Positions 19,755 through 49,652 of a stretch of 64,000 bases of DNA are shown in pieces. Source of the stretch: Candidatus Spongiisociaceae bacterium (GTDB taxonomy: Bacteria; Actinomycetota; Acidimicrobiia; Spongiisociales; Spongiisociaceae). The notes below the pieces were generated by a model that had not been told where the DNA came from, made no database searches, and worked only from the letters and a program-made list of their open reading frames with translations. Where the stretch lies: contig CBDCOH010000002.1 in NCBI GenBank assembly GCA_965219685.1, positions 3,040,001 through 3,104,000 on the forward strand, in the 5' to 3' direction. Position 1 is the stretch's first letter. The number at the start of each line of letters is the position of its first letter. The position numbers and the translations under genes are program-made.

Positions 19755-22700
19755 TCACGACCGGGTTCCCGGCCCGATTGATGCATTTTGCGTGGCCCAG
19801 TCGACTCCGTCGGGTGCTGGGGTTGGTGTGTGGCCCCAGCAGGTGATGGTTCCGTCGCTGCCTAGCCCGCAGAAGTGGGAGTCACCCGCGGAGATGGCTG
19901 TGTAGGTCCCGCCGGGTACGTTGACCGCACGGTTGCCGCAGGTGATGGTTCCGTCGGTGCGTAACCCGCACGGATAACTGTCCCCGCTGGCCAATGCAGC
20001 GAACCTACCGTCGAGTGGCATAGTGGTTCCCCGGTTTGTCGTGCAGCTGATGGTCTGGTCGGTGCGTAGCCCACACGTATACCTAGGCCCGGTCGATACC
20101 GCCGTGAATGTCCCTTCTGGTGGTTCGGGTACCTCCGAGTCCTCAGCGCCCCAGCATGCAATGGTCTGGTCGGTGCGTAGCCCGCACGCATACGCTCCGA
20201 TGGAAACGGCGACAAACGTCCCTTCTGGTGGTTCCGACAAGCCGCCCCCCGCCGGGGTTCCCCAGCATGCAATGGTCTGATCGGTGCCTATCCCGCAGGA
20301 AGACTCATAGCCACTGCTGACAGCGGTGTAGGAGCCTTCGGGACGGTACTCCGAGAAGACCATGCAAGACCATCTGCCGTAGCTCGGAACACACTTCGGG
20401 ATCGCTCCCCAGCAGATTACGGTTCCGTCCGTGCGTATCCCGCACGAATGGGTCCTGCCGCTGCTCACCGAAGTGAACGTCCCGGGCGGCGGTTCGGCTT
20501 GGCCCGAGTTGTTGGCTCCCCAGCAGGTAATCGCCTGGTCGGCTCCTATTGCACAAGAATGGGTCCTGCCGCTGCTCACCGCGGTGAACTGTTCGTTAGC
20601 TTTTGGGGGGGAGACCACCCACAAGCTCCTGTCGCCCCAGCAGGTGATGTTGCCTCCCGCGCGTACCCCGCAGGTGTACCGCTGGCTAGCAGCGACCGAG
20701 GTGAACTTCCCAGGTGGCGGCTCCGCCTCGCCTCTGTTGTTGGCGCCCCAGCAAGTGACGGTTCCGTCGGCGCGTAGTCCGCACGAGTGGGTGTAACCGG
20801 CGGTGACGCTGACGAACCTGCCCCCGGGCGCGTCGGTTTGCCCACCGACGAAACCGTGTCCACGTGAGTTGTTACCCCAGCACTTGACCGTCTGGTCGGT
20901 TCGCAGCCCGCAGGTGTGACCACCGTCGATACTGCCACCCGCCGAGATAGCTGTGAACAGCCCTTGGGGCGGGTCGGTAGCGCCGGCGTGGTTCCAGCCC
21001 CAGCAGACCACGGTCCCGTCGGTTCGCAGCCCGCACGAGTGCCTGAAACCGGCTGTTACTGCGGTGAACCGCCCATCAGGAGCGTCCGCCTGTCCGTCTG
21101 TGTTGGTGCCCCAACAGGCAATCGTCTGGTCGGTTCGTAACCCACAGGAGTGGTCTCCGCCTCCGTAGGTAGAGATCGAGGTGAACTTTCCTTCCGGAAC
21201 ATGGACCCGGGTGGTGCCGTCCCAGTTACCCGACCAGCAGACGACTATCTGGTCGGGGCGTAGCCCACACGAGTTGCTAGCACCGGCTGTGACCGCGGTG
21301 AAGGGTCCGGGAGGTGGGTCCACCCCGCCGTCCCTGTTCGGGCCCCAACAAGCGACGGTTCCCTCGGTTCGGAGCCCACAGGTGTGGGAGTCTCCGGTGG
21401 CTACCGCGGTGAAGGTCCCAGATGGTATCCCCGCCTTACCGCCGTGATCGTATGCCAAGCAGGCAATGGCCCCATCCGACAACACCTCACACGAATGCGA
21501 CCAGCCCATCCCGGAGAAAGACCCAAACGGCGGCGACACCTGCCCAGACTTGTTGCTACCCCAGCAGATGATCGTATGGTCGGTTCGGAGCCCACACGAA
21601 TGCGACCCACCCGCTGATACCGCCGTGAAAGTCCCCGCCGGTGCCTCTGTCCGCTCCTGCCAGTTGCTACCCCAGCAGATGATGGTGTGGTCGGTTCGGA
21701 GCCCACACGAATGCCTTTCACCGGCTGATACCGCGGTGAAAGAACCCGCTGGTGCGTCCGCCCGTCCCCACGCGTTGCTGCCCCAGCAGATGATTGACAG
21801 GTCCGACAGCAGCCCGCACGAATGCGACTCACCAGCGGCTACTGCCGCGTAAGATCCGGTGGGTGCCTCTGTTTGTCCTGATGTATTGGCGCCCCAGCAG
21901 ATGATCGTGTGGTCGGTTCGGAGCCCACAGGTGTGGGAGTCTCCGGCGGATACCGCGCTGAAAGATCCAGGCGGTGCCTCTGTCTGTCCCCATGAGTTGG
22001 CACCCCAGCAGATGACGGTGTGGTCGGTTCGGAGCCCACAGGAGTGCGACCTACCGGCGGCTACTGCCGTATAAGACCCGGCCGGTGCCTCTGTCTTCCT
22101 CTCCCAGTTGCTGCCCCAGCAGGTGACCGATCCGTCCAGCAGTAGGCCACACAAGTGCGAGTAACCGGCGGACACCGCGGTGTAGGACCCAGACGGGGGT
22201 GACAGCTGTTGGTCGTCGGGCCAGCAGGTGACTGATCCGTCGGACAGTAGCCCACACGAGAAGTCCCCGTGACCGGCGGACACCGCGGTGAAATCCGAGC
22301 CGGAGGTACCTGCCTCTGGGGTTTCGCGACCGACCGTAGAAGCCCGCCGCAGGAACGTGGCCATCTGAGCGCGGGTAACCGGCTCGTCAGGGCAGAACCG
22401 CGGTGGCTCGGTCGCGCATCCCGCTGTAACCCCAGCAGCCCATAACGCCTCGATGTTCGCCTCGTGCCTGTTGCCGCCAGTATCTACAAAGCCCGCGCCA
22501 GACGCCACTGCGTCAGCCAGCCCGTACGCCCGCTGCAGGAACGTGGCCATCTGAGCGCGGGTAACCGGGTCGTCAGGGCAATAGCGGAGCGGCCCGGTCG
22601 CGCATCCCGCTGTGATCCCGGTCTCCGCTAGACGCTCAACATGATCCTGCCACCAAACCCCCGCCTCAACATCGGCAAACCCCGAGCCGGCCGCCGGGAC

Positions 22701-23720: not shown

Positions 23721-26700
23721 CACCGGTAACCAATCACCCCTCATCGTTAGGACCACTTAGTCTATGTGTATTCCCGCGGTCCAGAGAACGGAGGCGGCTG
23801 CTCTTCGATGCCCTTCGTATCGCCTCCGAGTGGATCAAGCTGAGGTTGTTTTGGTTCCGATCGTGTTGCTGTGACAGAGCCTGATGGATGAGGAGCGAGC
23901 GCTTAGGAACGGGTGAGGCGCTTGCCTTTCGTAGGATTCGTCGTCGTGGGCGGGCTACCGATGTTAGTCGTGGGTTGATGATGGTGCTTCCCTTCCCACG
24001 ACTGACGACGTTTCGCTGGTCTGTAGACTCACCGGGACGGAAACGTCGGTGAAGGCTGAGCGGGTACAGTTGAGTTGGTGACGGCGTGGACGTGTCGTGT
24101 GGTTGCTGGTCGGTGGGTAGCGTTGGTGGTGGTGTCGGCTGTTGTCGGAGTTGTGGTGGGGGTAGGGGTTTCTGCACCAGCTGCGGCTGCTGATTCTGGT
24201 TCGGGGTTTTCGGATATTGGTGAGGCTGGGTCTCATCGGGGTTCTGTGGAGGCGTTGGCGGCTGAGGGTGTTCTGGCGGGGACGGAGTGCGCTCCGGAGA
24301 TGTTCTGCCCTGCTGAGCCGGTCCACCGGTGGGTGATGGCGGTCTGGCTGGTTCGGGTGATCGACGGCGCAGACCCCGACCGGTCAGGGGTGTCCCGGTT
24401 CGCGGATGTGGGTGCGGGCGAGTGGTGGGCGCCTCATGTGGAGCGTTTGGCCGAGTTGGGTGTTACTGCTGGTTGCGCTACCGGGCCGTTGCGGTTCTGC
24501 CCGTCCGAGGCTGTTACCCGCGCTCAGATGGCGTCGTTCCTGGTTCGGGCTTTCGGCCTTCCGGAGGGTTCGTCTGGTGAGTTCGCCGACATTGACGGAG
24601 ATGCTCACGCGGCGAATATCGATGCGTTGGCGGCTGCTGGTGTGACATCGGGCTGCTCGACCGATCCGCTCCGATACTGCCCTGGTCGGGATACCACTCG
24701 GGCTCAGATGGCAACGTTTCTGAGCCGTGCTCTGCAGTTTGGTTCGTCCAGACCGGTTGAGACACCGGAGGGTGGGGGGTTCAAAGCGGTTTCGGCTGGT
24801 AATGGTTTCTCGTGCGGGATCCGCGCCGATGGGACGGTTGCCTGCTGGGGTGCGAACTGGAGGGGTCAGGCAACCGCCCCGGAGGGGGAGTTCAGCACGG
24901 TAACCGCTGGCTTTGAGCACTCGTGTGGGGTACGCAGCGACGGGACTGTTGCCTGCTGGGGTGGGAACTGGGCCGGTCAGACCGATGCCCCCGAGGGGAA
25001 GTTCAGCACGGTTTCTGCCGGGTTTGGGCACTCGTGTGGGGTACGCACCGATTGGAGCGTTGTCTGCTGGGGCCAGAACTCCCATGGCCAGACCGACGCT
25101 CCCGCGGGCAAGTTCACCACAGTGTCCGCCGGATGGGCACATTCGTGTGGCGTACGCAGCGACCGCAGCGTTGTCTGCTGGGGAGACAACACCCATGGCC
25201 AGACCGACGCTCCCGGCGGCAAGTTCAGCGCCGTTTCCGCGGGACAGTCGCATTCGTGCGGGATAGGTAGCACTGGAAGGGTTGTCTGCTGGGGTGCGAA
25301 CTGGTGGGGTCAGGCTTCCGCCCCCGGGGGGAGGTTTAGCGCTGTCTCCGCGGGACGATCGCACTCGTGTGCGCTGTTTGATGATGCAACGGTTGCCTGC
25401 TGGGGTACCAATACCGATGGCAGAGCCGACCCACCCGACGGCCAGTTCACCAGCGTGTCCACTGGATGGGCACATTCGTGTGGGCTGTTTGATGATGCAA
25501 CGGTTGCCTGCTGGGGCAACGACAACGATCGCCGAGCCGGCCCGCCCGAAGGTGGGTTCAGGTCGGTATCGGTGGGAGGTGGGCACACATGCGGGATCCG
25601 CACCGATGGGACCGTCGCATGCTGGGGTTACGGCGCCGGTGGGCCTTTCGACCTATCGGACGGCAAGTTCATGAGTCTGGCTGTCGGGTTCGCTCATTCA
25701 TGTGGGATCCGCACCGACGGCACCGTTGCATGCTCGGGAGCCGATGCCGATGGCCGAACAGAGGCTCCGCGAGGAGAGTTCCGGTTGGTATCGGCAGGGT
25801 TTGCTCATTCATGTGGGATCCGCACCGATGGGACGGTCGTCTGCTGGGGCCAGAACTCCGATGGTCAGACCGATGCACCCGAGGGCAAGTTCACCACAGT
25901 GTCCGCCGGATGGGCCCACTCTTGTGGGATCCGCACCGATGGGACGGCTGTCTGCTGGGGTAACAACTGGGCGGGTCGCGCTGACGCTCCTAGCGGGAGT
26001 TTCAACGCTGTATCGGCCGGGAATGGGCATTCGTGTGGGATCCGCACCGATGGGACGGCTGTCTGCTGGGGAATCAACTGGGCGGGTCGCGCTGACGCTC
26101 CTAGCGGGAGTTTCAACGCTGTATCGGCCGGGGATGCGCATTCGTGTGGGATCCGTACCGATCGGACTGTTGTCTGCTGGGGGGACAACACCGACAGCCG
26201 AGCCGACGCACCCGAAGGCAAGTTCAGCGCGGTTGCCGCCGGGTGGGCGCATTCGTGTGGTGTCCGGTCGAGCGGGATCCCAGACTGTTGGGGCCGCGAC
26301 CCGGTTGTCCCGTTTCCCGCCGGTGTGCGACAAGCCGCATGGCCCGGGGGTCCGGACCCGCAGATGTGTCGTCCTAGGGGAGTGGAACGTCACACAGCCG
26401 GTTTCCCCCTCCCAGGCTGGGCGGTGCCGCCTAGCGGGAAACTACGGGTAGCGGTCCTCTTTGTGGACTTCCCCGACGCGGTGGCCCGACACTCCACCCA
26501 GCGCGAAGCCGCCGGGCGGTTGCGGGAGGTCGAAGAGCGCATCGAGCGTTACAGCTACGGAAAACTAGAAGTCGAGTTCGGAGTGCTACATGGCTGGCTG
26601 CGCGCCCAACATGGCTACAGGCACTACGAGGCTGACTCTGTGGCAGGTGGAGTCCAGATCGAGGCGGACACCGTCAGGGAGGCTGTGCGGCTCGCCGACG

Positions 26701-27139
26701 ACCGTTTCGACTTCGCCGGCTACCACCAAGTACTGGTCGTCGCACCCAGTTCACACTTCGGGGGCGGCGTCGCCGTTGACGGAGTCCACACCGATGAGGG
26801 ACCGATCGGCCGAGCGGCCGTGATCAACTCTTACAGACATGACAAGGACACAGACCCCAACGACTGGAGTTATGCTGCAGCTCACGAAATCGTCCACGGA
26901 CTCGGACTGCTAGACCTGTATCCCTTTGACCAGGCGCGGCACCGGCAACCAGCTCCCCCCAGAGACCGCAAATGGGTACCCTCCAGGTTCGGTCTCATGA
27001 ACCTATGGGCCTACTTCCTCACAGACGAAAGAGACCCACGCCTCGCGCTTACTTGGCATTGGCCCGACGGCAACACCACCACCGATCTGAACCGCCCCGG
27101 TTACCCCGGAGACTCGATTAGTTGGGAGATAATGGAGTC

Positions 27140-28380
<1,241 letters not shown>

Positions 28381-29297
28381 AACACTCTCCGGCAAACCCG
28401 GGGCGGTTCAATCACAACCTGGGTTCAGTGCTGGCTGAGGAAATGCTGGCGTGGAGTCGCTGGCAACTCGGTTGGCTCGAACCCGACCAAGTCCTGTGTG
28501 TCACCGACAAACACACAACCGTAACCCTGACTCCTGTTGCCGACCCCGGCCGGGGCACAGCAATGGTCGCAATCCCCCTATCCAGGTCCGAAGTCATCGT
28601 CATCGAGAGCCGACACAGGATCGGCTATGACAAGGGCCAAGAATACCAAGCCCCGAACGGGGCGCAGACCACCTTTCCAGCCCTCCTCACCGAGGGCGTC
28701 CTCGTATACACAGTCGACGCCACCCTCGGATCAGGGAACCTACCTGTGAAAGTGGCTGGCGACTCGGGAAACGGACAAGTAGACGACTACCCCATCCTCA
28801 CCCGCGGCCAGAGTGTCACCACCCACGGCTACACCATCACCGTGATCTCTACAACACCCAACACCACGATCACAATCACACAAGAGTGAATCCTCCTGAG
28901 CCGCGCTGAACATCCGTGGGTTAGGTAGGGGCCCTTCGCGTGTGTGGGCGTTGGGCCCCCCTTCCTGTTGTGTTGGTGGGTCCCGGCAGCCGTTTTGTTG
29001 TGGTGGTGGCTGGTGGGGGTCGAGTAGCTGTTTGAGGTTGACCCGCTTTGGTGGACACTACTCTCCGGCAGACCCGGGGCGGTTCACCCCTTCCAAACCC
29101 GAGTCATCACCCGAATCCCCGACTAGCCCCCATCCCTCCTAGCCGACCGAACCTACCCCCCAAACCGTCCCACAACACCCCGACCCGGAGGGCCGGAGAA
29201 CCCGCCGGCACAGACACCCTACGAACGCGACTACCCCCTCGTCAGATACCCACCTCAGCAACCCATAACGGGGTAGGTCGATCGTCGGGGTGGCAGC

Positions 29298-29342
29298 AGG
29301 ACGGGACCGGTGCCCGCAGCCAGACCCCGGTCCGACCTGTCC
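29298..29342 (-). other. Stem-loop 3' of the pentamer array
   Basis: GGACCGG...CCGGTCC inverted repeat, extendable by GGAC/GTCC; no U-tract, so not called a terminator. Confidence 0.5.
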
Positions 29343-29350
29343 GCTCTGGA

Positions 29351-29429
29351 TGTCCATGCCGTGCGCTGCCGCGCCATGCCTGGCGGTGCCATGCCAAGCT
29401 TTCCGTGCCTTGCCAAGCCAAGCCCCGCC
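29351..29429 (-). repeat. Pentamer array (GGC-NN)x~16, candidate guide RNA
   Basis: GGCGG GGCTT GGCTT GGCAA GGCAC GGAA AGCTT GGCAT GGCAC CGCCA GGCAT GGCGC GGCAG CGCAC GGCAT GGACA, starting 3 nt after the RAMP stop codon. Confidence 0.9.
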
Positions 29430-29432
29430 TCG

Positions 29433-30029
29433 CTAGTCGACCGTTTCGATGTTCTCCACTTCGAAGCGTCCGTACTGTCCCGACTTCTGGGGTCGCCAGT
29501 CCCCGATCCCGAGCCGCCGCCCACCGATGTCCAGCCAGGTGAGCAGCTGGTCACGGTCGACGAGTTCGTCGTCCACATCGACGACGAAAGTGACCGCCCA
29601 CCGCTCGAACCGGGCCCGGGTGCGCAACACTCGGCGGCCGTTCACCATCACCCCGGTCGTGAACTGGCAACTACGCGCCAACTCGGCGGCGGTGGTACCC
29701 AGCGACTGGTCGTAGTCGAAGGCCTCGACCGTCTGGACGTTGAGTCCTTCCCGTACTAGCGGTCCCTGGCGGAGTTTTCGGGCGGCGTACTCGATGTTTG
29801 ACCGAAGCGCCGCCGCCGGGACCGTAGGCGCTCCGATCTCGTCGAGGTAAAGCGAAACGAGGCACTCCAACTCCCGGAGGCGGACCTCGTCGGTCTCTGT
29901 CCGGTTACCCGCCCGTTTCTTGGTGATCTCCGCCTTCTCGATGTTGGCAGCCGATCGGGTGTCCAATCCGGCCGCTCCGTTGTTAGTGATGAGGGGGCTA
30001 ACACCCCGAATTGTGATCCGATACCGCAT
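29433..30029 (-). CDS. Stand-alone RAMP/Cas7-like protein (Vipr-like), 198 aa
   Basis: RAMP-type beta1 RITIRGVSPL, PTVPAAALRS helix motif, C-terminal G-rich loop LGIGDWRPQKSGQYGRFEV; GGAGG RBS. Confidence 0.8.
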   Translation of the reverse strand: MRYRITIRGVSPLITNNGAAGLDTRSAANIEKAEITKKRAGNRTETDEVRLRELECLVSLYLDEIGAPTVPAAALRSNIEYAARKLRQGPLVREGLNVQTVEAFDYDQSLGTTAAELARSCQFTTGVMVNGRRVLRTRARFERWAVTFVVDVDDELVDRDQLLTWLDIGGRRLGIGDWRPQKSGQYGRFEVENIETVD

Positions 30030-30391
30030 TCCGCGATCACCTCCCTAAAGCGAGCCACGAACTCATACACGCTGCCCCCAGCCCGACTGAACCGGCGCAG
30101 GCTGGTAGCCAGCCGATGACACAGCGAACACAAACCCACCAGATCCGACGCCACGAGCTTGGGCCGCCCACAGCAGGCGTCGTCCCGCCCGCACGGATAC
30201 ACCAGGGCGCTGTGATGCGCTTCTGCGGCTGCTCGGAGCCCGCAGAAGGAACAGCAGCCCCCGTTACGGGCCAACACGTAGGACCTCAACAGCAGGTACC
30301 TCGGCCCGTACGCATCCCCGCAACGCGCCACGACCGGCTTGTCCGCCCTGGCCGATACACGGTCCGGCGCCGATCCTTGCTCTGTGTTCAC
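29756..30391 (-). CDS. HNH endonuclease-like zinc-finger protein
   Basis: R..VLARNGGCCSFCG...EAHH...DLVGLCSLCH; the tail overlaps the RAMP gene. Confidence 0.65.
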   Translation of the reverse strand: MNTEQGSAPDRVSARADKPVVARCGDAYGPRYLLLRSYVLARNGGCCSFCGLRAAAEAHHSALVYPCGRDDACCGRPKLVASDLVGLCSLCHRLATSLRRFSRAGGSVYEFVARFREVIAECGIGSQFGVLAPSSLTTERPDWTPDRLPTSRRRRSPRNGRVTGQRPTRSASGSWSASFRFTSTRSERLRSRRRRFGQTSSTPPENSARDR

Positions 30392-30414
30392 CCGTCGGGA
30401 CCTCCCCGGGCTTC

Positions 30415-30510
30415 ATGGTACCGTAGCCCTATAGGCCTATGGTACCATACCATAGTAAGGGATAGAAGGGATCCGGTGGTTAGGGTCGGTACCATCGGGG
30501 CGTACCCGAT
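30415..30510. promoter_or_regulatory. Divergent promoter region with repeated GGTACC-centred palindromes
   Basis: ATGGTACCGT (30415), ATAGGCCTAT (30431), TATGGTACCATA (30438), CGGTACCAT (30487). Confidence 0.55.
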
Positions 30511-30523
30511 CCCCCTTCTCAGT

Positions 30524-30760
30524 GTGAGTGTCCGGCACCCAGACCACAGCGATATCGAGCAGCAGACCCTCCAAGCGTGGGAGACCTATCGGAGGGCTAA
30601 TCGGGCGCGTGTGGAGGCCTCGGCCGCTGTGGACGCGAAACTCGCTGCTGCCCGCTCGGAGGGGGTTTCCATGTATCGGATGGCCAAATGGCTCGGAGTC
30701 ACTGAACGGGCGATCAAGGTACGGCTCGAGAAGTACGACCGAACACACCCCAAGCCCTGA
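30524..30760 (+). CDS. Small HTH DNA-binding protein
   Basis: AARSEGVSMYRMAKWLGVTERAIKVRL; start codon uncertain. Confidence 0.65.
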   Translation: MSVRHPDHSDIEQQTLQAWETYRRANRARVEASAAVDAKLAAARSEGVSMYRMAKWLGVTERAIKVRLEKYDRTHPKP

Positions 30761-31494
30761 AGCCCCACCGAGGACAGGCACCACATCTGTAGCGCGTGCC
30801 GTTTCCGGGAGGACACCGTTTTGGACAGCGGCGCGAGGGTTGGTTTGTGCGGGGCGGGAGGCCGCGGATTGTTGTCTGGGTTTTCGTGTAGTGTCTGGTG
30901 GTGTGGGTTAGCGATCCGTCCGGGTCTATGGTGATCGGGTGACGACCCGACGCGACGGCTCCTATCCCGCTGCCCGACCCGGTTTTCCCTATACCGGGCT
31001 CGTTCCGCTGCTGTGAGCTTCCTCGCGGCGGAGATTGCCGCTCTGGGCGGGCTTGCGCAACGTGTCCGTATCCGGTTTCAGTGCCGTCCCAGCCAGGTCC
31101 GACCGAACGGCTTCCTCCGTGTCGAAATGGTCGCTCGCTGTTTCAGCCGGGGTCTGGTTCTGCGAGCGCTCGCCGCTCTTGTGGCCCGCCAGGCCGCTAA
31201 GGGAGTGGCTGCCGGCAGTCGGTTGGCGGGTGGGGGTTGTCCGGGCGCTGGGCTGGGCGTTGTTGTGGGTTGCAGCCGCCGAAGCCTGATCCGGATCGGT
31301 GTCGGAGCGTGGGCCGGGCCGCCACTCCTGGTTGCTGAGGATCGGGACAGTTAGCTGTCGAGGGTGTCTCGAGCGGCTGCTACGGCGTTTCGGGGTTGGT
31401 GAGGGTTGGCGGGGTCGAGCCGGGACCGTCCCAGACCGGTAGTGCCGAACCCGCATGTGCGACGTTCGTGTTTTGGTTGGGGCTGGTGTCGCGG

Positions 31495-32499
31495 TTAGGT
31501 GGGGTGGTCACCCCAGCGTTGGGCGCCGAGGTATTGGCCGGTTGCTAGGTCGTGGTCTTCGAGGGTTTCTATGAGGCGTTCGGTGGGACTGTTGGACCAG
31601 CCGAGCCGGTCTGCGGCTTGTGGGTCGGGGATGTGGGTGTCGGCGTACAGGGCTGCTCGGCAAGCCGCCCACCCGAGCGCTTCTGCCAGCCGTCCGGACG
31701 GTTCGGCACCGTGCCGTGCCGGTAGGGGCCGGGGATGCTCGAACCAGGCCGGAATGGTCTTCTCGTGCCAGACGCTGATCCAGTAGGCACCGGGTGGGGT
31801 GAGGAGGTGTTCGAAGTTGGCGCGGTGCGGCTGGAGCAGGCGGTCACACAGCTCGGAGATGTCATGTCCCCACGTTGTGGTACCGGGAACGGCTGCGAGG
31901 TGGATGAGCGCTCGGATCGAGTCTGCGACCACAGCATGGGCCGCTGCGCACGCCCACAACAGCGCGGTCGAGTACCGGTCGGGGTCTTTGGCCTGTTCTT
32001 GGCGGTTGCGGACAGCGCCGGCCAGGTAGCTGCGCAGCTGTGCCACGCCTGCGTCCACCGACCCGAGCATCGCGCGCGCCTCTCCCAGGGCGTTGGTGGC
32101 CGACACCATCGGCTTGTCCCAATCCACCCCTAGGGCCGGGCGGTCGGCGAGGACCTTCCCGTAGGAGGCCACGTGCCGTTCCATCGACGTTTCGATCCCT
32201 TCGGTACGGGTTTTCCACTCGGGCCGGTCAGTGACCAGCAGCTGTATCGGATATCCCGACGCTTCCTCAGCAGCCTCCCGCAGCGAGTCGGTCATGCTGT
32301 CGCGCTGGTCGTAGTCCAGGTCGTCGTAGACGGCGACGAGGTCGATGTCGCTTCGGGCGGTCTGTTCACCGCGAGCGACGGAGCCGAACAGCACCACCCG
32401 ACCAACACCAGCCTCCACCAGCACCTCCGCGGCCCGTTCCGCGTCGCGGAGCGACGGTGGCACTCCCGGCCCGGCCTTTCCGCGTTCAGAAACATTCAT
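31495..32499 (-). CDS. Minimal nucleotidyltransferase (MNT) fused to a HEPN-like domain
   Basis: VVLFGSVARG...SDIDL; helical C-terminal half with WGHDISEL. Confidence 0.75.
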   Translation of the reverse strand: MNVSERGKAGPGVPPSLRDAERAAEVLVEAGVGRVVLFGSVARGEQTARSDIDLVAVYDDLDYDQRDSMTDSLREAAEEASGYPIQLLVTDRPEWKTRTEGIETSMERHVASYGKVLADRPALGVDWDKPMVSATNALGEARAMLGSVDAGVAQLRSYLAGAVRNRQEQAKDPDRYSTALLWACAAAHAVVADSIRALIHLAAVPGTTTWGHDISELCDRLLQPHRANFEHLLTPPGAYWISVWHEKTIPAWFEHPRPLPARHGAEPSGRLAEALGWAACRAALYADTHIPDPQAADRLGWSNSPTERLIETLEDHDLATGQYLGAQRWGDHPT

Positions 32500-32823: not shown

Positions 32824-35157
32824 TTACTGTGCCCATCGGACTCCTTCGGGGGCTGGTATCAGGCCCCTTTGGCCCCAGCATGCTGCTTGGCCGTCTGTTC
32901 TTATTCCGCAGGATGTGTGGGTGAACAGGGTGAGGGAGCTGAATTCGCTTCCGGGTGGTTCTGTTTGTCCGTGGTCGTTGGGTCCCCAGCACGCGACGGT
33001 GCCGTCTGTTCGTATCCCACAGGAGTGCGTTCCGTCTTGGACGCTGACAGCCACGGCGGTGAACCGCCCGTCGGGTGCGTCTAGGTTCCCTTGATGGTCG
33101 TAGCCCCAGCATGCGATCGAGCCGTCGGTGCGGAGCCCGCAGATGTGGTCGTAGCCGCCCGAGAGGGCGGTGAACTGCCCGTCTGGTGCTTGGGTGTAGC
33201 GGCCCCAGCACGAGGCGGTGCGGTCGCTGCTGATGCCGCAGGTGTAGTCAACCCCGACGGCTACGGCGGTGTATTGGCTGTCGGGTGCGGCCAACGCTGC
33301 GGCGGGTGCTTGGTCACCCCAGCATGTGACAGCCCGGTCCGCTCGGATGGCGCAGGAGTGGGTGATGCCGGTGGCGAGGGTCGTGTATTGCCCGTCGGGT
33401 ACGTTCAGCTGTGCTTGGTCGTTCCGGCCCCAGCACACGATTCCACCGTCCTCCCGGAGTCCACATGAGTGTTGCGCCGAGGCCGACACCGTAGCGAACC
33501 GGCCGTCGGGTGGGTCGGACTGGCCTTCGTCGTTGTCTCCCCAGCACACGACCGTGGCGTCCGTGCGGAGTGCGCAGGTGTGTCCCCGTCCGGCGGTGAT
33601 GGACGTGAACCGTCCGTCGGGTACGTCGAGCTGGTCGGTTGTTCCTCCCCAGCAGGAGACAGTGCCGTCCGCTCGCAGACCACACAGATGGTGGAGCCCA
33701 CCGACCACCGAGGCGAACGCGCCGTCGCCTATTCGCCCGCCCCAGCAGACAACGGTGCCGTCCTCCCCCAACCCACACGTATGGAAGGGTCCTGTGGCTA
33801 TAGCAGCGAAGGTTCCGTCGGGAGCGTCGAGCTGTCCGTGGTCGTTCCCGCCCCAGCAGACGATGGTGCCGTCCTCCCGCAGGCCGCAGGAGTGGGCCGC
33901 CCCGGCGGTGACCGCCGCGAAGGAACCGTCGGGAGGGTCGGACTGCCCGTCTGTGTTACGGCCCCAACACTGGACGGTGCCATCCGCCCGCAGCCCACAC
34001 GTATGGAGGGGTCCCGCGGCTATGGCGGTGAAGGTCCCGTCGGGAGCGTCGCGCTGCCCGGCGAGGTCGTTGTCGCCCCAGCAGACAACCGTGCCGTCCT
34101 CCCGCAGCGCACACGTGTGGGCAGAACCGGCGGTGACCGCAGCGAAGGCTCCGTCGGGAGGGTCGGACTGCCCGTACTGGTTCCAACCCCAACACTCAAC
34201 CATCCCGTCCGCCCGGAGCCCGCACGAATGCCCGAACCCGGCTGTGATAGCAGTGAAGGTTCCGTCGGGTGCGTCGAGTTGTCCGTATTGGTTCCAGCCC
34301 CAGCACTGGGCGGTGCCGTCGGCCCGGAGTCCGCACGAATGCGCGAGCAAGGCGGCAAGGTCTGTGAACTTCCCATCGGGTGGATCCGCCTGACCCCAGG
34401 TGTCGAAACCCCAGCAGACCACAGAGCGGTCGGCTCTTAGCGCGCAGCTGTGGTCCGTGCCGGCTGCGATCTTGGTGAACCCCCCGCTGGGTGGGGTTGT
34501 CTCATCCGCGTCGGGTAGTAGGCCGAATGCTCTGGCTAGGAACGTGGCCATCTGAGCCCGGGTCGTCGCCTGGCCGGGGCAGAAACGGAGAGGGTCGGTG
34601 GCGCAGCCCACCGTGACTCCCGCCGCGGCCAACGCGTCGATGTTGGCCTCGTGAGTGTTACTGGCCGTGTCCGCGAACCCCGCCGGACCTGCGGGGTCGA
34701 GACCGACCGCCCGGACCAGGAACGTGGCCATCTGAGCGCGGGTCACGACCTGGTGGGGGCAGAACCGCAGCGGCTCCCGGGCGCAGCCCAAGGTGACCTC
34801 CAGGTCCGCGAGCCGCTCCACATAGGGTGTCCACCACTCGTCGGTGTCCACATCGGCGAAGCGTGTTCCCGCCTCGCTGGTTGGAGACTCGCCCAACGCT
34901 CGGACCAGCCACACCGCCATCACCCAACGGCGGATCGGATCTCCCGGACAGAACAGGCCCTCCCCACACTCGGTACCTGCCAGCACCCCCGCATTGGCCA
35001 GAGCATCGATCGCCGGCTCATGCACCGACCCGTCATCGTCACCAAACCAACCCGCCGCCGACACACTCACAGCCAGCACCACCAGCAGCATCACCGCCGT
35101 ACCCAACAGCATCCACACACCGACACGGCCACGAGCCACGCAACCATTCACAGACAT
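32824..35157 (-). CDS. Secreted SLH x3 + about 14 RCC1-like repeat protein (intact)
   Basis: Signal peptide, three SLH repeats, HSCGLRADGT..CWG repeats. Confidence 0.92.
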   Translation of the reverse strand: MSVNGCVARGRVGVWMLLGTAVMLLVVLAVSVSAAGWFGDDDGSVHEPAIDALANAGVLAGTECGEGLFCPGDPIRRWVMAVWLVRALGESPTSEAGTRFADVDTDEWWTPYVERLADLEVTLGCAREPLRFCPHQVVTRAQMATFLVRAVGLDPAGPAGFADTASNTHEANIDALAAAGVTVGCATDPLRFCPGQATTRAQMATFLARAFGLLPDADETTPPSGGFTKIAAGTDHSCALRADRSVVCWGFDTWGQADPPDGKFTDLAALLAHSCGLRADGTAQCWGWNQYGQLDAPDGTFTAITAGFGHSCGLRADGMVECWGWNQYGQSDPPDGAFAAVTAGSAHTCALREDGTVVCWGDNDLAGQRDAPDGTFTAIAAGPLHTCGLRADGTVQCWGRNTDGQSDPPDGSFAAVTAGAAHSCGLREDGTIVCWGGNDHGQLDAPDGTFAAIATGPFHTCGLGEDGTVVCWGGRIGDGAFASVVGGLHHLCGLRADGTVSCWGGTTDQLDVPDGRFTSITAGRGHTCALRTDATVVCWGDNDEGQSDPPDGRFATVSASAQHSCGLREDGGIVCWGRNDQAQLNVPDGQYTTLATGITHSCAIRADRAVTCWGDQAPAAALAAPDSQYTAVAVGVDYTCGISSDRTASCWGRYTQAPDGQFTALSGGYDHICGLRTDGSIACWGYDHQGNLDAPDGRFTAVAVSVQDGTHSCGIRTDGTVACWGPNDHGQTEPPGSEFSSLTLFTHTSCGIRTDGQAACWGQRGLIPAPEGVRWAQ

Positions 35158-41997: not shown

Positions 41998-43513
41998 TAG
42001 ACACCCCAGGCGGCAAATGTCAAGCTGCGGCTTGGTCGGCAAATGTCAAGCTGCGGCTTGGTCGAGGGTGGTGCGGTGGGCCCAGGTAGTGTGTTCGTCA
42101 TAGGTGGTTCGGTGTTTGAGACAGCCGTGGAGGATACCCACGAGCCGGTTGGCGAGGGCTCGGAGTGCTTGGTGGTGGAGGTCGCCGGCGGCTCGGCGTT
42201 GGTCGTAGAACGCTCGGGCGCCTGGACTTCGGGTTAGGGAACAGAATGCCCATTGGTCGAGGGCGTCGTAGAGGCGCCGGTTGCGGACGTGGCGGGCCAT
42301 AACGGTGTGTTTGCGGCCTGACGCGATGGTGATGGGCGACGTGCCGGCATAGTTCCTGGGTGACTTGGCGCTGGTGTAGCGTTGGGGGTCGTCCCCGGAC
42401 TCTCTGCGAGCGCCCGGGCGCCGAGCACGGTACCGAGTCCTGGCTGGGAGTGGTAGATGACGGCGTCCGGGTGCTCCTCAAAGCGGGTTTCCAGGGTTGC
42501 TTCGAGGTCTGTGAACTGGCGGTTGGTTTCCGCAATGACGCTCACCAGCGCCCCCACAGTGGCCCCGTGTGCGTCGGTGACCCGCCCAGGAGCGGCGAGT
42601 TGGCGGGTGCGGAGCCCTTTTTGTATTCGACGGGCAGCCGTATCGAGGGTGCGGCGTCGGCCGGCGGCGCGGAGCGCGGCCCTAATCTGGGTGACGGTCA
42701 GGCGGGCACCCCGGGTGGGGGTGGTTGCCCGACCCAGCACGGCGACGGTGTCGCGATTAGCCCGCTCATCGAAGGTTTCGAGGGCTGCGGGGTAGTACTC
42801 GCGCAGGGCGTTGCGGATCTGGTTGGTGTGACGCACCCGAGCCCAGATCAGGTTCTGATGCGTCCTAGCCAGGACTTTGATCCCTTCGGCTTCGGGGCTA
42901 TCACCGGCAACCCGACGATGGTTGTGCCGGTCGGTGCGTACTAGGTCGGCTAACACCTTGGCGTCGCCACGGTCTGATTTGGCCCCACCCTGGCTATGAC
43001 GGGTCCCGGTAACGCGAAACTGCCATCGGGTTGATCGCATACACCTGATAACCCGCCCCGACCAGAGCACCGACCCACAAACCACGGTCACACTCGATGC
43101 CCACCACCACCTCGGACGGATCCGATACGTGCTCGCCGATCATCTCATGCAACTGGGCCACACCTGCCAGACCTTCTGGTAGCCGCCGAGCGGCCAACGG
43201 AACTCCGGACTCGTCCATGAGACACACATCATGATGTCCCTCAGCCCAGTCATCACCCACAAAGATCATCCTTGCCTCCTCCATAGACGGATCACTCTCG
43301 AGCTGTGGAGGAAACGCCTGGCGGCGACCTAGCAGATCAGTGCTCTTCGCGGCACGCCACCCCATGAGCGCTACAAGCAGCCCTCACTCACCGGCCGGAG
43401 CACGATCTATCAACAGGAATCAGAGTTCCAGGAGCTTGGAGTACTCACCGGCCAGCCAGCTCAACCACCACACCCTCCCAGATGAACCAGAAGAAGTGGT
43501 GGACCCCCATTAG
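41998..43513 (-). mobile_element. IS110 element D1 (frameshifted recombinase 42046-43269)
   Basis: GDDWAE.HHD, AKSDRGDA, ASG, RNRRL motifs; CTA core at both ends; inverted twin of D2. Confidence 0.9.
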
Positions 43514-44842
43514 GAGCTTTGAGTTCTCCACCACGGTGAGTGTTCTGTCCGCCGCCCCTCAGGTTGGATCGAGAGAAGCCTACTAAGGAGGGAAGTCGCA
43601 TGGTAGACAGCCAGGTCGAAGTGTGTGGTGGGGTGGACACCCATCGGGATACCCATGTTGTGGCGGTGGTCGATACCGCTGGCCGGGTGTTGGGAACCGC
43701 CCCGTTCCCCGCTGATAGGGTCGGATATGAGCAGATGACCAGGTGGTTACGAACACATGGGCAGCTGCTCCGGGTTGGCGTGGAGGGAACCGGCAGCTAC
43801 GGTGCCGGCCTCGCCCGATATCTGACGGAAGCGGGCATAGCCGTGGTTGAGGTGAACCGCCCCAACCGCCAACTACGCCGCCAGAGGGGCGGCAAGTCTG
43901 ACAGCATCGACGCCGAGGCGGCAGCTCGGGCGGCCGCCTCGGGTCAAGCTACCGCAGTTCCCAAATCCGGTGTGGGCCCCGTTGAGTGCATTCGGATGCT
44001 GTTGGTGGCCCGCCGCTCCGCGGTTAAGGCACGCACCCAGGCCGCTAACCAGATCCATGCACTGGTCATAACAGCCCCTGAACACCTAAACGCCAGCTCA
44101 GAGGCCTCAAGATCAAGGCCCGGGTCAGGGTCTGTGCCCGATGGCGTCCCGGTGGGGACCAGACCACGACCGCGTATGCGAAGATGGCTCTGCGCCACCT
44201 CTCCCGCCGATACCAGACCCTCGATGCAGAAATCGCGCAACTCGACGCTGAGATCCGTCGCCTCTGCGCCCAGGCGAACCCTGCTCTCCTAGCCGCCAAA
44301 GGCGTAGGCCCTGACACAGCAGCCGCTCTCCTGGTCGCAGCCGGCGACAACCCCGAACGGATGAAATCAGAGAGGTCCTTCGCGGCGTTATCTGGCACCA
44401 GCCCCGTCCAGGCATCATCCGGCCAAACGGTCCGCAATCGCCTCAACCGGGGCGGCAACCGCAAAGCCAACAACGCGCTATGGCGAATTGCCACCAACCG
44501 GATGCGCACCGACGCCGCCACCAAAGCCTACGTGGCACGACGCAAGGCCGAGGGCAAGAAGAGAAAAGAGATCATCCGCTGCCTCAAGCGGCACATAGCA
44601 CGAGAAATCTACCGGCTCCTGACCAACCCGCCACCAACCCCGAACTGCGCCCGCCTACGGCACCAGCGACAACAAGCTGGCATCACTATCACCCGAGCCG
44701 CCCAACAACTCCGAACCCACCCCAGCCGCATCTCAGTACTCGAACACGGCCGGGACCACAACCACCATCTCGCCACCCGATACCAGAACTGGCTGCACAC
44801 CCACCGACGGCCGACTCCATCGATTTGACAAACATAGGAGCA
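43514..44842 (+). mobile_element. IS110 element E body (recombinase 43600-44828, frameshift ~44090, XRE-like C-terminus)
   Basis: IS110 motifs; right end TTGACAAACATAGGAGCA; left end cut at the donor loop by D. Confidence 0.85.
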
Positions 44843-48152: not shown

Positions 48153-48161
48153 GGGAAGAAC

Positions 48162-49652
48162 CTAATGGGGGTCCACCACTTCTTCTGGTTCATCTGGGAG
48201 GGTGTGGTGGTTGAGCTGGCTGGCCGGTGAGTACTCCAAGCTCCTGGAACTCTGATTCCTGTTGATAGATCGTGCTCCGGCCGGTGAGTGAGGGCTGCTT
48301 GTAGCGCTCATGGGGTGGCGTGCCGCGAAGAGCACTGATCTGCTAGGTCGCCGCCAGGCGTTTCCTCCACAGCTCGAGAGTGATCCGTCTATGGAGGAGG
48401 CAAGGATGATCTTTGTGGGTGATGACTGGGCTGAGGGACATCATGATGTGTGTCTCATGGACGAGTCCGGAGTTCCGTTGGCCGCTCGGCGGCTACCAGA
48501 AGGTCTGGCAGGTGTGGCCCAGTTGCATGAGATGATCGGCGAGCACGTATCGGATCCGTCCGAGGTGGTGGTGGGCATCGAGTGTGACCGTGGTTTGTGG
48601 GTCGGTGCTCTGGTCGGGGCGGGTTATCAGGTGTATGCGATCAACCCGATGGCAGTTTCGCGTTACCGGGACCCGTCATAGCCAGGGTGGGGCCAAATCA
48701 GACCGTGGCGACGCCAAGGTGTTAGCCGACCTAGTACGCACCGACCGGCACAACCATCGTCGGGTTGCCGGTGATAGCCCCGAAGCCGAAGGGATCAAAG
48801 TCCTGGCTAGGACGCATCAGAACCTGATCTGGGCTCGGGTGCGTCACACCAACCAGATCCGCAACGCCCTGCGCGAGTACTACCCCGCAGCCCTCGAAAC
48901 CTTCGATGAGCGGGCTAATCGCGACACCGTCGCCGTGCTGGGTCGGGCAACCACCCCCACCCGGGGTGCCCGCCTGACCGTCACCCAGATTAGGGCCGCG
49001 CTCCGCGCCGCCGGCCGACGCCGCACCCTCGATACGGCTGCCCGTCGAATACAAAAAGGGCTCCGCACCCGCCAACTCGCCGCTCCTGGGCGGGTCACCG
49101 ACGCACACGGGGCCACTGTGGGGGCGCTGGTGAGCGTCATTGCGGAAACCAACCGCCAGTTCACAGACCTCGAAGCAACCCTGGAAACCCGCTTTGAGGA
49201 GCACCCGGACGCCGTCATCTACCACTCCCAGCCAGGACTCGGTACCGTGCTCGGCGCCCGGGCGCTCGCAGAGAGTCCGGGGACGACCCCCAACGCTACA
49301 CCAGCGCCAAGTCACCCAGGAACTATGCCGGCACGTCGCCCATCACCATCGCGTCAGGCCGCAAACACACCGTTATGGCCCGCCACGTCCGCAACCGGCG
49401 CCTCTACGACGCCCTCGACCAATGGGCATTCTGTTCCCTAACCCGAAGTCCAGGCGCCCGAGCGTTCTACGACCAACGCCGAGCCGCCGGCGACCTCCAC
49501 CACCAAGCACTCCGAGCCCTCGCCAACCGGCTCGTGGGTATCCTCCACGGCTGTCTCAAACACCGAACCACCTATGACGAACACACTACCTGGGCCCACC
49601 GCACCACCCTCGACCAAGCCGCAGCTTGACATTTGCCCGCCTGGGGTGTCTA
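48162..49652 (+). mobile_element. IS110 element D2 (frameshifted recombinase 48406-49629)
   Basis: Near-identical to D1, including both frameshifts; CTA core. Confidence 0.9.

Follow-up and report, generated by a model that had tools for sequence, protein, structure and literature searches.

What kind of system is formed by a stand-alone RAMP gene that is followed, three nucleotides after its stop codon, by a run of five-nucleotide units in which a near-constant GGC is joined to a variable dinucleotide (NN)? Such a locus lies in a 64,000-nucleotide stretch of the chromosome of a Candidatus Spongiisociaceae bacterium (assembly GCA_965219685.1, contig CBDCOH010000002.1, positions 3,040,001 to 3,104,000), hereafter the window, which has 63% GC and belongs to a genome of 4.42 Mb. 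All positions given here are those of the whole window, position 1 being its first letter. The locus is very probably a chromosomal Viral Interference Programmable Repeat (VIPR) system, made up of a vap-like HNH gene, a vipr RAMP gene and a vrRNA array in the vipr 3′ untranslated region. It was found by a reader of the sequence alone, whose note (the original prediction) put it forward as a candidate non-CRISPR RNA-guided system and remarked on its likeness to VIPR. VIPR has been in print since 2026 (available portions of PMC13142463 and 10.64898/2026.04.26.720927), and the locus is therefore not a new kind of system. New at the locus are the overlapping HNH partner, what are probably short guides joined by a linker, and a relaxation of the first G of the repeat alongside changed contact residues.

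Vipr is described as an ancestral RAMP of about 20 kDa, and vrRNAs as 9–16 YNNGG repeats with a 3′ tail, in which the NN pairs read double-stranded DNA with one base skipped; there are seven VIPR types and six vap accessory genes, types III–V carry predicted nucleases or helicases, and the prototype, from Escherichia phage SUSP1, is of type II (available portion of PMC13142463). In the SUSP1 structures one protomer sits on each repeat, and the GGY triplet is contacted by H17 and D177 at G1, by R138 and W178 at G2 and by R179, with others, at Y3 (available portion of 10.64898/2026.04.26.720927).

The protein encoded at the locus is a member of the Vipr family. Its gene starts with ATG, encodes 198 amino acids and has a GGGAGG ribosome-binding site 10 nucleotides ahead of the start, and its GC content at the three codon positions (0.66/0.46/0.80) is typical of coding sequence in the window. 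A phmmer search of PDB sequences returned a single match, chain 36pp_D, ‘SUSP1 Vipr protein’ (E = 3.8e-11), and a profile of 27 family members matches the same chain with E = 2e-18 over positions 4–193, so that the likeness to VIPR named in the original prediction is borne out as sequence homology to a solved Vipr. The match to phrog_4652, a family of unknown function, runs from end to end of the protein (E = 1.9e-31), and the Vipr family is large, with 814 of 1,617 proteins of comparable length matching at E ≤ 0.001. The AlphaFold2 model is confident (predicted local distance difference test score, pLDDT, 91.7; predicted template modelling score 0.85), and its best Foldseek matches in the PDB are Csm3, Cmr, type VII Cas7 and Cas6 (E about 1e-4, template modelling scores 0.44–0.54); 33 chains match at E ≤ 0.001, those listed being CRISPR RAMPs. 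The RAMP fold that had been read from sequence motifs is thus supported by the model. The G-loop reads GIGDWRP, and the SUSP1 contact residues R138, D177, W178 and R179 occur under identical numbering in the window Vipr and do not vary in any of the 27 family members. The remaining G1 contact, SUSP1 H17, corresponds to family position 16, which is His in 24 of the 27 members and Asn (N16) in the window Vipr.

On the minus strand, the TAG of vipr is followed by CGA and then by about 16 pentamers, GGCGG GGCTT GGCTT GGCAA GGCAC GGAA AGCTT GGCAT GGCAC CGCCA GGCAT GGCGC GGCAG CGCAC GGCAT GGACA. The distance from the stop codon, the triplet composition (11 GGC, 2 CGC, 1 AGC and 2 GGA) and the single unit of four nucleotides are exactly as first counted. 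Using a scanner of our own for period-5 GGY-NN runs, which tolerates indels, we scanned both strands of the genome and found this array to be the top one (score 7.5, 15 units); only four matches reach a score of at least 5, and the other three are bare five-unit runs at 5.0. A relaxed xGY scanner also places it first, with 12 against 9 for the runner-up locus, two of its six matches at ≥8 being the window locus on both strands. At the array, Tandem Repeats Finder gives only weak rows of period 10 and 20 (scores 33 and 51), which argues that this is not an ordinary microsatellite and agrees with units whose triplet is fixed and whose dinucleotide is free, as the original prediction had held. 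Since the array begins three nucleotides past the vipr stop codon, as in many relatives, it would most simply be co-transcribed with vipr and then processed.

The association of gene and array is a property of the whole family. We gathered 138 homolog loci from genome, viral and metagenome contigs, 121 after duplicate removal, and called an array wherever a same-strand GGY-NN run with a score of at least 6 lay within 1 kb of vipr. Such arrays are present in 92 of the 121 loci, and opposite-strand arrays in 2; the density is 0.72 per kb near vipr versus 0.006 per kb further out. In a further 28 loci neither strand carries an array near vipr, and one more has it on the opposite strand only, the array-less loci including some that are cut by contig ends and two with very long arrays whose midpoints fall outside the 1-kb limit. 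The dinucleotides vary among relatives, as had been predicted for homologs with downstream arrays. Indeed, among the near-identical loci L001, L002 and L099, 16 of 241 aligned columns vary, 10 of them in the second guide, and 8 of those 10 are at N4 or N5; L092 and L093 differ by NN changes and by a 15-nucleotide indel equal to three whole units. In a same-genus genome, vipr is followed by 15 perfect GGC-NN units out of 15. The loci closest to the window share none of its NN series, and NN variability was measured in the other relatives named here. Constant GGY, free NN and modular units are the published VIPR signature. Five viral loci (L048, L049, L072, L083 and L085) carry far longer GGY-NN tracts beside vipr, of 84–360 units as counted by our scanner and up to about 1.7 kb.

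A second gene of the locus, which the original prediction missed, lies directly upstream of vipr on the same strand: an open reading frame (ORF) of 211 amino acids that runs into vipr, in the +1 frame, for its final ~91 codons. By tblastn, an HNH ORF is found directly upstream of vipr in 11 collected loci, as well as in the same-genus locus L143 and the same-family locus L145. Residues C47, C50, H59, H60, C88 and H92 are invariant in 10 aligned copies, and the resulting CxxC...HH...CxxCH arrangement is the pattern of zinc-bound HNH nucleases. A profile of these copies finds its best PDB match in the HNH domain of Cas5-HNH (8yb6_A, residues 280–340; E = 5.8e-7), followed by the HNH of IscB (2.1e-5), the phage GVE2 HNH endonuclease (9.3e-5) and ZRANB3 (1.8e-4); the Pfam HNH family is recognised in 3 of 10 members, with E = 6e-4 at best, and the window copy is not among these three. 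The structural model is confident for residues 30–125 only (pLDDT 85–92), its top fold matches are all HNH enzymes, at weak significance (E ≥ 0.08), and the basic tail that overlaps vipr is predicted to be disordered, bar one short helix. In all nine HNH-bearing loci compared (the window, L001, L002, L007, L008, L087, L088, L092 and L093), the vipr +1 frame is free of stops over its first 76–98 codons, whereas the +2 frame has 1–4 stops within the overlap stretch; the overlap therefore looks maintained, and it could couple the translation of the two genes or set their ratio. A shift of one base back inside the overlap would fuse the two proteins. We looked for such HNH-Vipr fusions among 5,836 candidates, and the two longer proteins that match at E ≤ 0.001 (P0122 and P0123) are frame-shifted chimeras that look like errors or pseudogenes, one of them translating the array itself. 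Judged from conservation and profile matches, the HNH ORF is a candidate accessory vap gene of the locus. It would put the locus among the nuclease-bearing VIPR types, going by their description in the main text of the preprint, and as proposed for those types (available portion of PMC13142463), an HNH partner would point to a target that is destroyed and not silenced.

In the window, the repeat is partly degenerate at its first G. In its 14 regular units, position 1 is G in 11, C in 2 and A in 1, while all 14 have G at position 2 and C at position 3. Of the three closest loci, one with His16 and Asp177 has 15 GGC units out of 15, one with Asn177 and a truncated vipr keeps G1 in 7 of 14 units, and one with Asp16 and Asn177 keeps G1 in 4 of 14, with G2 in 13 and C3 in 14; in these four loci of one bacterial family, positions 2 and 3 remain G and C in 13–14 of 14 units. 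Among 103 distinct loci with at least 8 units, all five in which residue 16 or 177 is changed have a G1 fraction of 0.67 or less, as do 10 of the 98 others, several of them doubtful arrays; position 16 is unaligned in 56 of the 103, including L146, one of the five, and for these only residue 177 decided the class. With three related loci among the five variants, a broken gene in one of them and arrays called by a scanner of our own, the apparent link between changes of the G1 contacts and degeneracy of the first G is a lead and not a result. We raise, tentatively and as rather an unlikely proposal, that the window belongs to a nuclease-armed lineage in which the repeat code has relaxed from GGC/NN to NGC/NN because both G1 contacts have changed. 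Non-canonical repeat triplets beside divergent Viprs have already been reported, and we found no residue-level link to them in the available portion of that report (10.64898/2026.10.21.760802).

Searches with the NN series, applied with a one-nucleotide skip in the manner of the gapped patterns proposed in the original prediction, gave nothing convincing in the genome itself, in 60 related genomes or in viral contigs; the original prediction, too, had found no target in the window by eye. The pattern of nine NN pairs would be one unit too strict if AGCTT belongs to a linker. The window's own genome has no target at up to 2 mismatches and six matches at 3 mismatches, where about three are expected by our estimate; a repeated non-coding element accounts for half of the six. 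With skips of 0, 2 and 3 nucleotides it gives 0, 0 and 1 match at 3 mismatches, besides the match of the array to itself at skip 3. The 60 related genomes yielded one match at up to 2 mismatches (it has 2), against none for the reversed control. Three exact 18-base matches occur in viral contigs of 28–38% GC and are close to chance level, as judged without a control scan; all 150 collected loci held no target beyond these three. For the 15-unit guide of the same-genus locus, there were no matches at up to 3 mismatches in 61 genomes, and a 20-base sub-pattern of it matched no viral contig.

How the array is to be divided bears on what its guides would read. The four-nucleotide unit was correctly counted in the original prediction, but it is better read as part of a 9-nucleotide linker, GGAAAGCTT, between two guides: the array probably comprises one guide of five units (NN = GG TT TT AA AC) and a second of eight, or nine if AGCTT is counted. 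Relatives at 45–67% protein identity have arrays of several blocks joined by 9-nucleotide elements that start with GGA, five of them (L001, L008, L087, L089 and L092) with the same geometry as in the window, and these multi-block arrays close with a motif similar to their GGA linkers. The end motif of the window array, GGACATCCA, likewise aligns with the array ends of L008, of L087 and of loci from the same genus and the same family. AGCTT (29396–29400) could instead be a degenerate first unit of the second block. Some features count against a VIPR locus with two guides: both GGA motifs of the window lack the CG seen in most relatives' linkers, and the first block, with five units, is below the 9–16 reported for the SUSP1 and P. 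fulva clades (available portion of PMC13142463). A single 16-unit guide with a one-nucleotide deletion in unit 6 is a serious possibility that we do not favour. It would agree with the window total of 16 units and with the closest relatives (72–75% protein identity), which have single arrays (15 units in L143, about 14–16 in L145 and L146) with one end motif each. However, the short unit starts GGAAA, like the L143 end motif and the internal linkers of L001 and L092, and phase is regained after exactly nine nucleotides, as with the linkers of the five multi-block loci; a random deletion would not create a GGA motif as well. Furthermore, the block next to the stop codon is often a short one in relatives, with 6–8 units. 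The repeat count is thus 5 plus 8–9 for two guides, or 16 with a one-nucleotide gap for one, and the published range of 9–16 covers two clades.

Two explanations compete with a functional VIPR locus as such. The best solved folds (Csm3, Cmr and type VII Cas7), together with the presence of cas1 elsewhere in the genome, could suggest an orphan CRISPR Cas7 or Csm3 gene lying beside a chance GC-rich repeat. This is very improbable indeed, since the protein has sequence homology to Vipr and to no Cas family (Pfam, NCBIfam and PADLOC scans gave no match to the 198-residue protein, and 36pp is its sole PDB sequence match), the Foldseek library, which ends on 2026-04-08, may lack Vipr structures, the genome has no second array of this kind, arrays recur beside vipr in 92 of 121 homolog loci, and cas1 lies about 197 kb off. 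More weight must be given to the idea that the locus is in decay, so that family membership is real and the system no longer works, with a damaged array and guides that match nothing. Several observations weigh against an intact system in this way. The irregular unit, the C or A at position 1 in 3 of 14 units, N16 in place of the G1-contact His and the failure of the searches to find a target would all be expected of a failing locus. The window is crowded with insertion sequences (IS), including IS110-type genes or fragments and IS3, ISL3 and IS4 types. In addition, the same genome has two broken copies, both without an array, whose common sequence after the break resembles an IS end: L006 (G000:C2:860337-863438) has an HNH copy 72% identical over 105 amino acids and a 33-residue vipr fragment covering residues ~71–104, and L148 (G000:C2:3128256-3131387), about 60 kb downstream of the locus, has vipr fragments covering residues 88–164 with an internal TGA. 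We regard both as decayed VIPR remnants, and together with the many IS elements they make decay plausible; one same-genus genome, moreover, has truncated vipr copies only, one of them next to a degenerate array. Signals for expression and RNA folding are also weak. A hairpin does follow the array, as first noted, but it folds no better than shuffled sequence (minimum free energy −36.3 kcal/mol, z = −0.73; 48 of 200 shuffles fold as well), and four relatives taken together give a weak consensus fold (−4.5 kcal/mol). A sigma-70 promoter scan of 29000–31600 gave no match, and a terminator scan of the same interval gave two against 1.6 expected, none at the array or hairpin; Rfam returned nothing for 28800–31600 at E up to 1, and the public runs listed include no RNA set.

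On the other side, vipr is full length, keeps every invariant residue of the family and has a strong coding signature (GC of 0.80 at third codon positions), and the vap frame is intact. The degeneracy of the repeat falls on position 1 in 3 of 14 units and on positions 2 and 3 in none of 14, a pattern that neutral decay would not give, and the odd unit shares its 9-nucleotide geometry with the linkers of healthy multi-guide relatives. On balance we consider decay unlikely, if well worth keeping in view.

By homology with the SUSP1 system, Vipr protomers would polymerise along the transcript, one per pentamer, each gripping a GGC and exposing the NN dinucleotides, which would pair with double-stranded DNA with every third target base skipped; both the one-to-one ratio of subunits to repeats and the gapped pairing, which the original prediction had proposed, are shown for SUSP1 and carried over from there to the window. 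The array would encode two short guides, of five and of eight to nine units, separated by the 9-nucleotide GGA linker and closed by the GGA motif and the hairpin. Presumably, the HNH partner would then cut or nick the bound target, which would not be silenced only. The features of the locus are collected in the table.

Table. Features of the very probable VIPR locus and its flank, in window coordinates
Feature	Position	Strand	Basis
vipr, gene for a 198-amino-acid Vipr-family RAMP	29433–30029, including the stop codon	−	ORF; match to PDB 36pp_D; phrog_4652; AlphaFold2 model
Probable vrRNA block 1, five GGC-NN units (NN = GG TT TT AA AC)	29405–29429	−	Sequence; scanner
Putative 9-nucleotide GGA-type linker GGAAAGCTT	29396–29404	−	Geometry in relatives
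Probable vrRNA block 2, eight units (six with GGC, two with CGC; NN = AT AC CA AT GC AG AC AT)	29356–29395	−	Sequence; scanner
3′ end motif GGACATCCA, closing the array	29347–29355	−	Alignment with end motifs of relatives
GC-rich hairpin that follows the array and may be a 3′ cap or a terminator	29293–29344	−	Minimum free energy
Candidate vap, ORF for a 211-amino-acid HNH-type nuclease	29756–30391	−	Conservation; profile matches
Small divergent ORF with a weak helix-turn-helix signal	30476–30760	+	Conservation; phrog_7061

The small divergent ORF beyond the HNH gene has an uncertain start (GTG at 30476 or 30524). Its C-terminal 70–90 residues are 52–57% identical to ORFs that are placed and oriented alike in L143 and L145, and it matches the helix-turn-helix family phrog_7061 weakly (E = 0.0018); it is possibly a regulator of the locus. 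A large gene for an RCC1/SLH surface protein lies on each side of the locus. A further 56 window ORFs were compared with Pfam (30) or PHROGs (26), and none matches a phage structural family, so no prophage is seen; the matches are to transposases, regulators and one DnaC-like loader. Across related genomes vipr is found in 3 of 60, as a full-length gene in the genus, a full-length gene in the family and two truncated copies in the third, and it is found in none of 400 others sampled from the class, a patchy distribution that fits a mobile accessory system.

The original prediction's statement that the window has neither cas1, cas2, cas5 or cas6 nor CRISPR repeats holds as well. No CRISPR-type array is present among the 20 Tandem Repeats Finder rows of the window, which are mostly 111/222-nucleotide RCC1 coding repeats, and Pfam scans of the four locus ORFs and 30 other window ORFs found no Cas family. 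The nearest cas1 (L150, G000:C2:2872770-2873609; PF01867, E = 3.8e-88; a 552-amino-acid open frame) lies about 167 kb before the window start and about 197 kb from the locus, so the genome has CRISPR-Cas as well as VIPR. The 111/222-nucleotide repeats at 24809–26260 and 33739–34382 lie within two RCC1-repeat genes, and further tracts of them, at 1058–1352 and 21552–22179, are not CRISPR arrays either. An IS3-family element (orfA 27122–27463, orfB 27460–28380; rve and HTH_21) sits inside the SLH/RCC1-repeat gene at 24075–28889, whose frame appears to resume at 28221–28889, and the gene thus looks interrupted by it. Elsewhere, perfect inverted repeats of 1,482 nucleotides (42038–43519 and 48156–49637; 100% complementary) enclose 4,636 nucleotides with IS110-type fragments; the arrangement either resembles a composite transposon or stems from the assembly. 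Adjoining the VIPR locus on the minus strand, 31495–32499 encodes a 334-amino-acid nucleotidyltransferase (NTP_transf_2, E = 1.6e-8) with weak, below-cutoff similarity to the MntA antitoxin and Hailong HalB models and with matches to PADLOC PDC-S09 and PDC-M05A, which may be a separate defence or toxin-antitoxin gene.

The VIPR systems studied until now are phage-borne and of the silencing type; the locus provides a fully annotated example of another sort, on a chromosome of high GC content and with an HNH gene as partner. A Vipr of about 20 kDa and a short RNA may suit use as a tool, and a version with a small nuclease partner of its own would therefore be of practical interest. The changes in the G1 contacts, set against the NGC repeats, are a testable clue to the evolution of repeat recognition; if true, the relaxation to NGC would offer a natural handle on how Vipr reads its repeats, together with a compact RNA-guided nuclease.

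Among known systems, TIGR-Tas resembles the locus in being non-CRISPR and in having guide arrays of tandem repeats, whereas its effector is an unrelated non-RAMP protein and its period is 18 nucleotides, compared with 5 in the window array; it is listed beside VIPR in the available portion of 10.64898/2026.10.21.760802. The backbone proteins of class 1 CRISPR systems (Cas7, Csm3/Cmr4 and type VII Cas7) share the RRM/RAMP fold, the glycine-rich loop and the thumb with the window Vipr and are its best solved structural matches. Cas7-family RAMPs, too, polymerise on guide RNA at a fixed step. However, there is no detectable match at the level of sequence families, the window locus has neither repeats of the CRISPR type nor cas1 or cas2, and the class 1 step is six nucleotides with five paired bases, whereas the window array has five nucleotides with two informative bases. 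The type I-E HNH Cascade (PDB 8yb6, 8yha and 8zlu) likewise couples an HNH domain to a RAMP-based RNA-guided complex, and its Cas5-HNH is the best solved sequence match of the window HNH ORF and is also among the top folds. There, however, the HNH is fused to Cas5 within a multi-subunit complex, whereas in the window it is separate and small, with a disordered basic tail, and the match may mean no more than that HNH domains are widespread.

The closest counterpart is the SUSP1 VIPR system. Both have a homologous single-RRM RAMP of about 200 amino acids with the same G-loop (GDWRP) and a thumb Arg, a same-strand GGY-NN array beside the gene with NN variable among relatives, and a two-gene locus with an accessory gene and with no cas genes or CRISPR array. 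The window Vipr is about 20–25% identical to that of SUSP1 over the aligned part, by our estimate, and its repeat differs in a partly degenerate first G, with N16 in place of the G1-contact His. The SUSP1 array ends in a pseudoknot tail of ~40 nucleotides, whereas that of the window ends in a short GGA motif and a hairpin, its blocks being short, at 5 and 8–9 units. The vap genes of the SUSP1 type encode predicted DNA-binding proteins, in contrast to the HNH nuclease that overlaps vipr in the window, and the SUSP1 system is borne by a phage, whereas the window locus is chromosomal and has no recognisable prophage around it.

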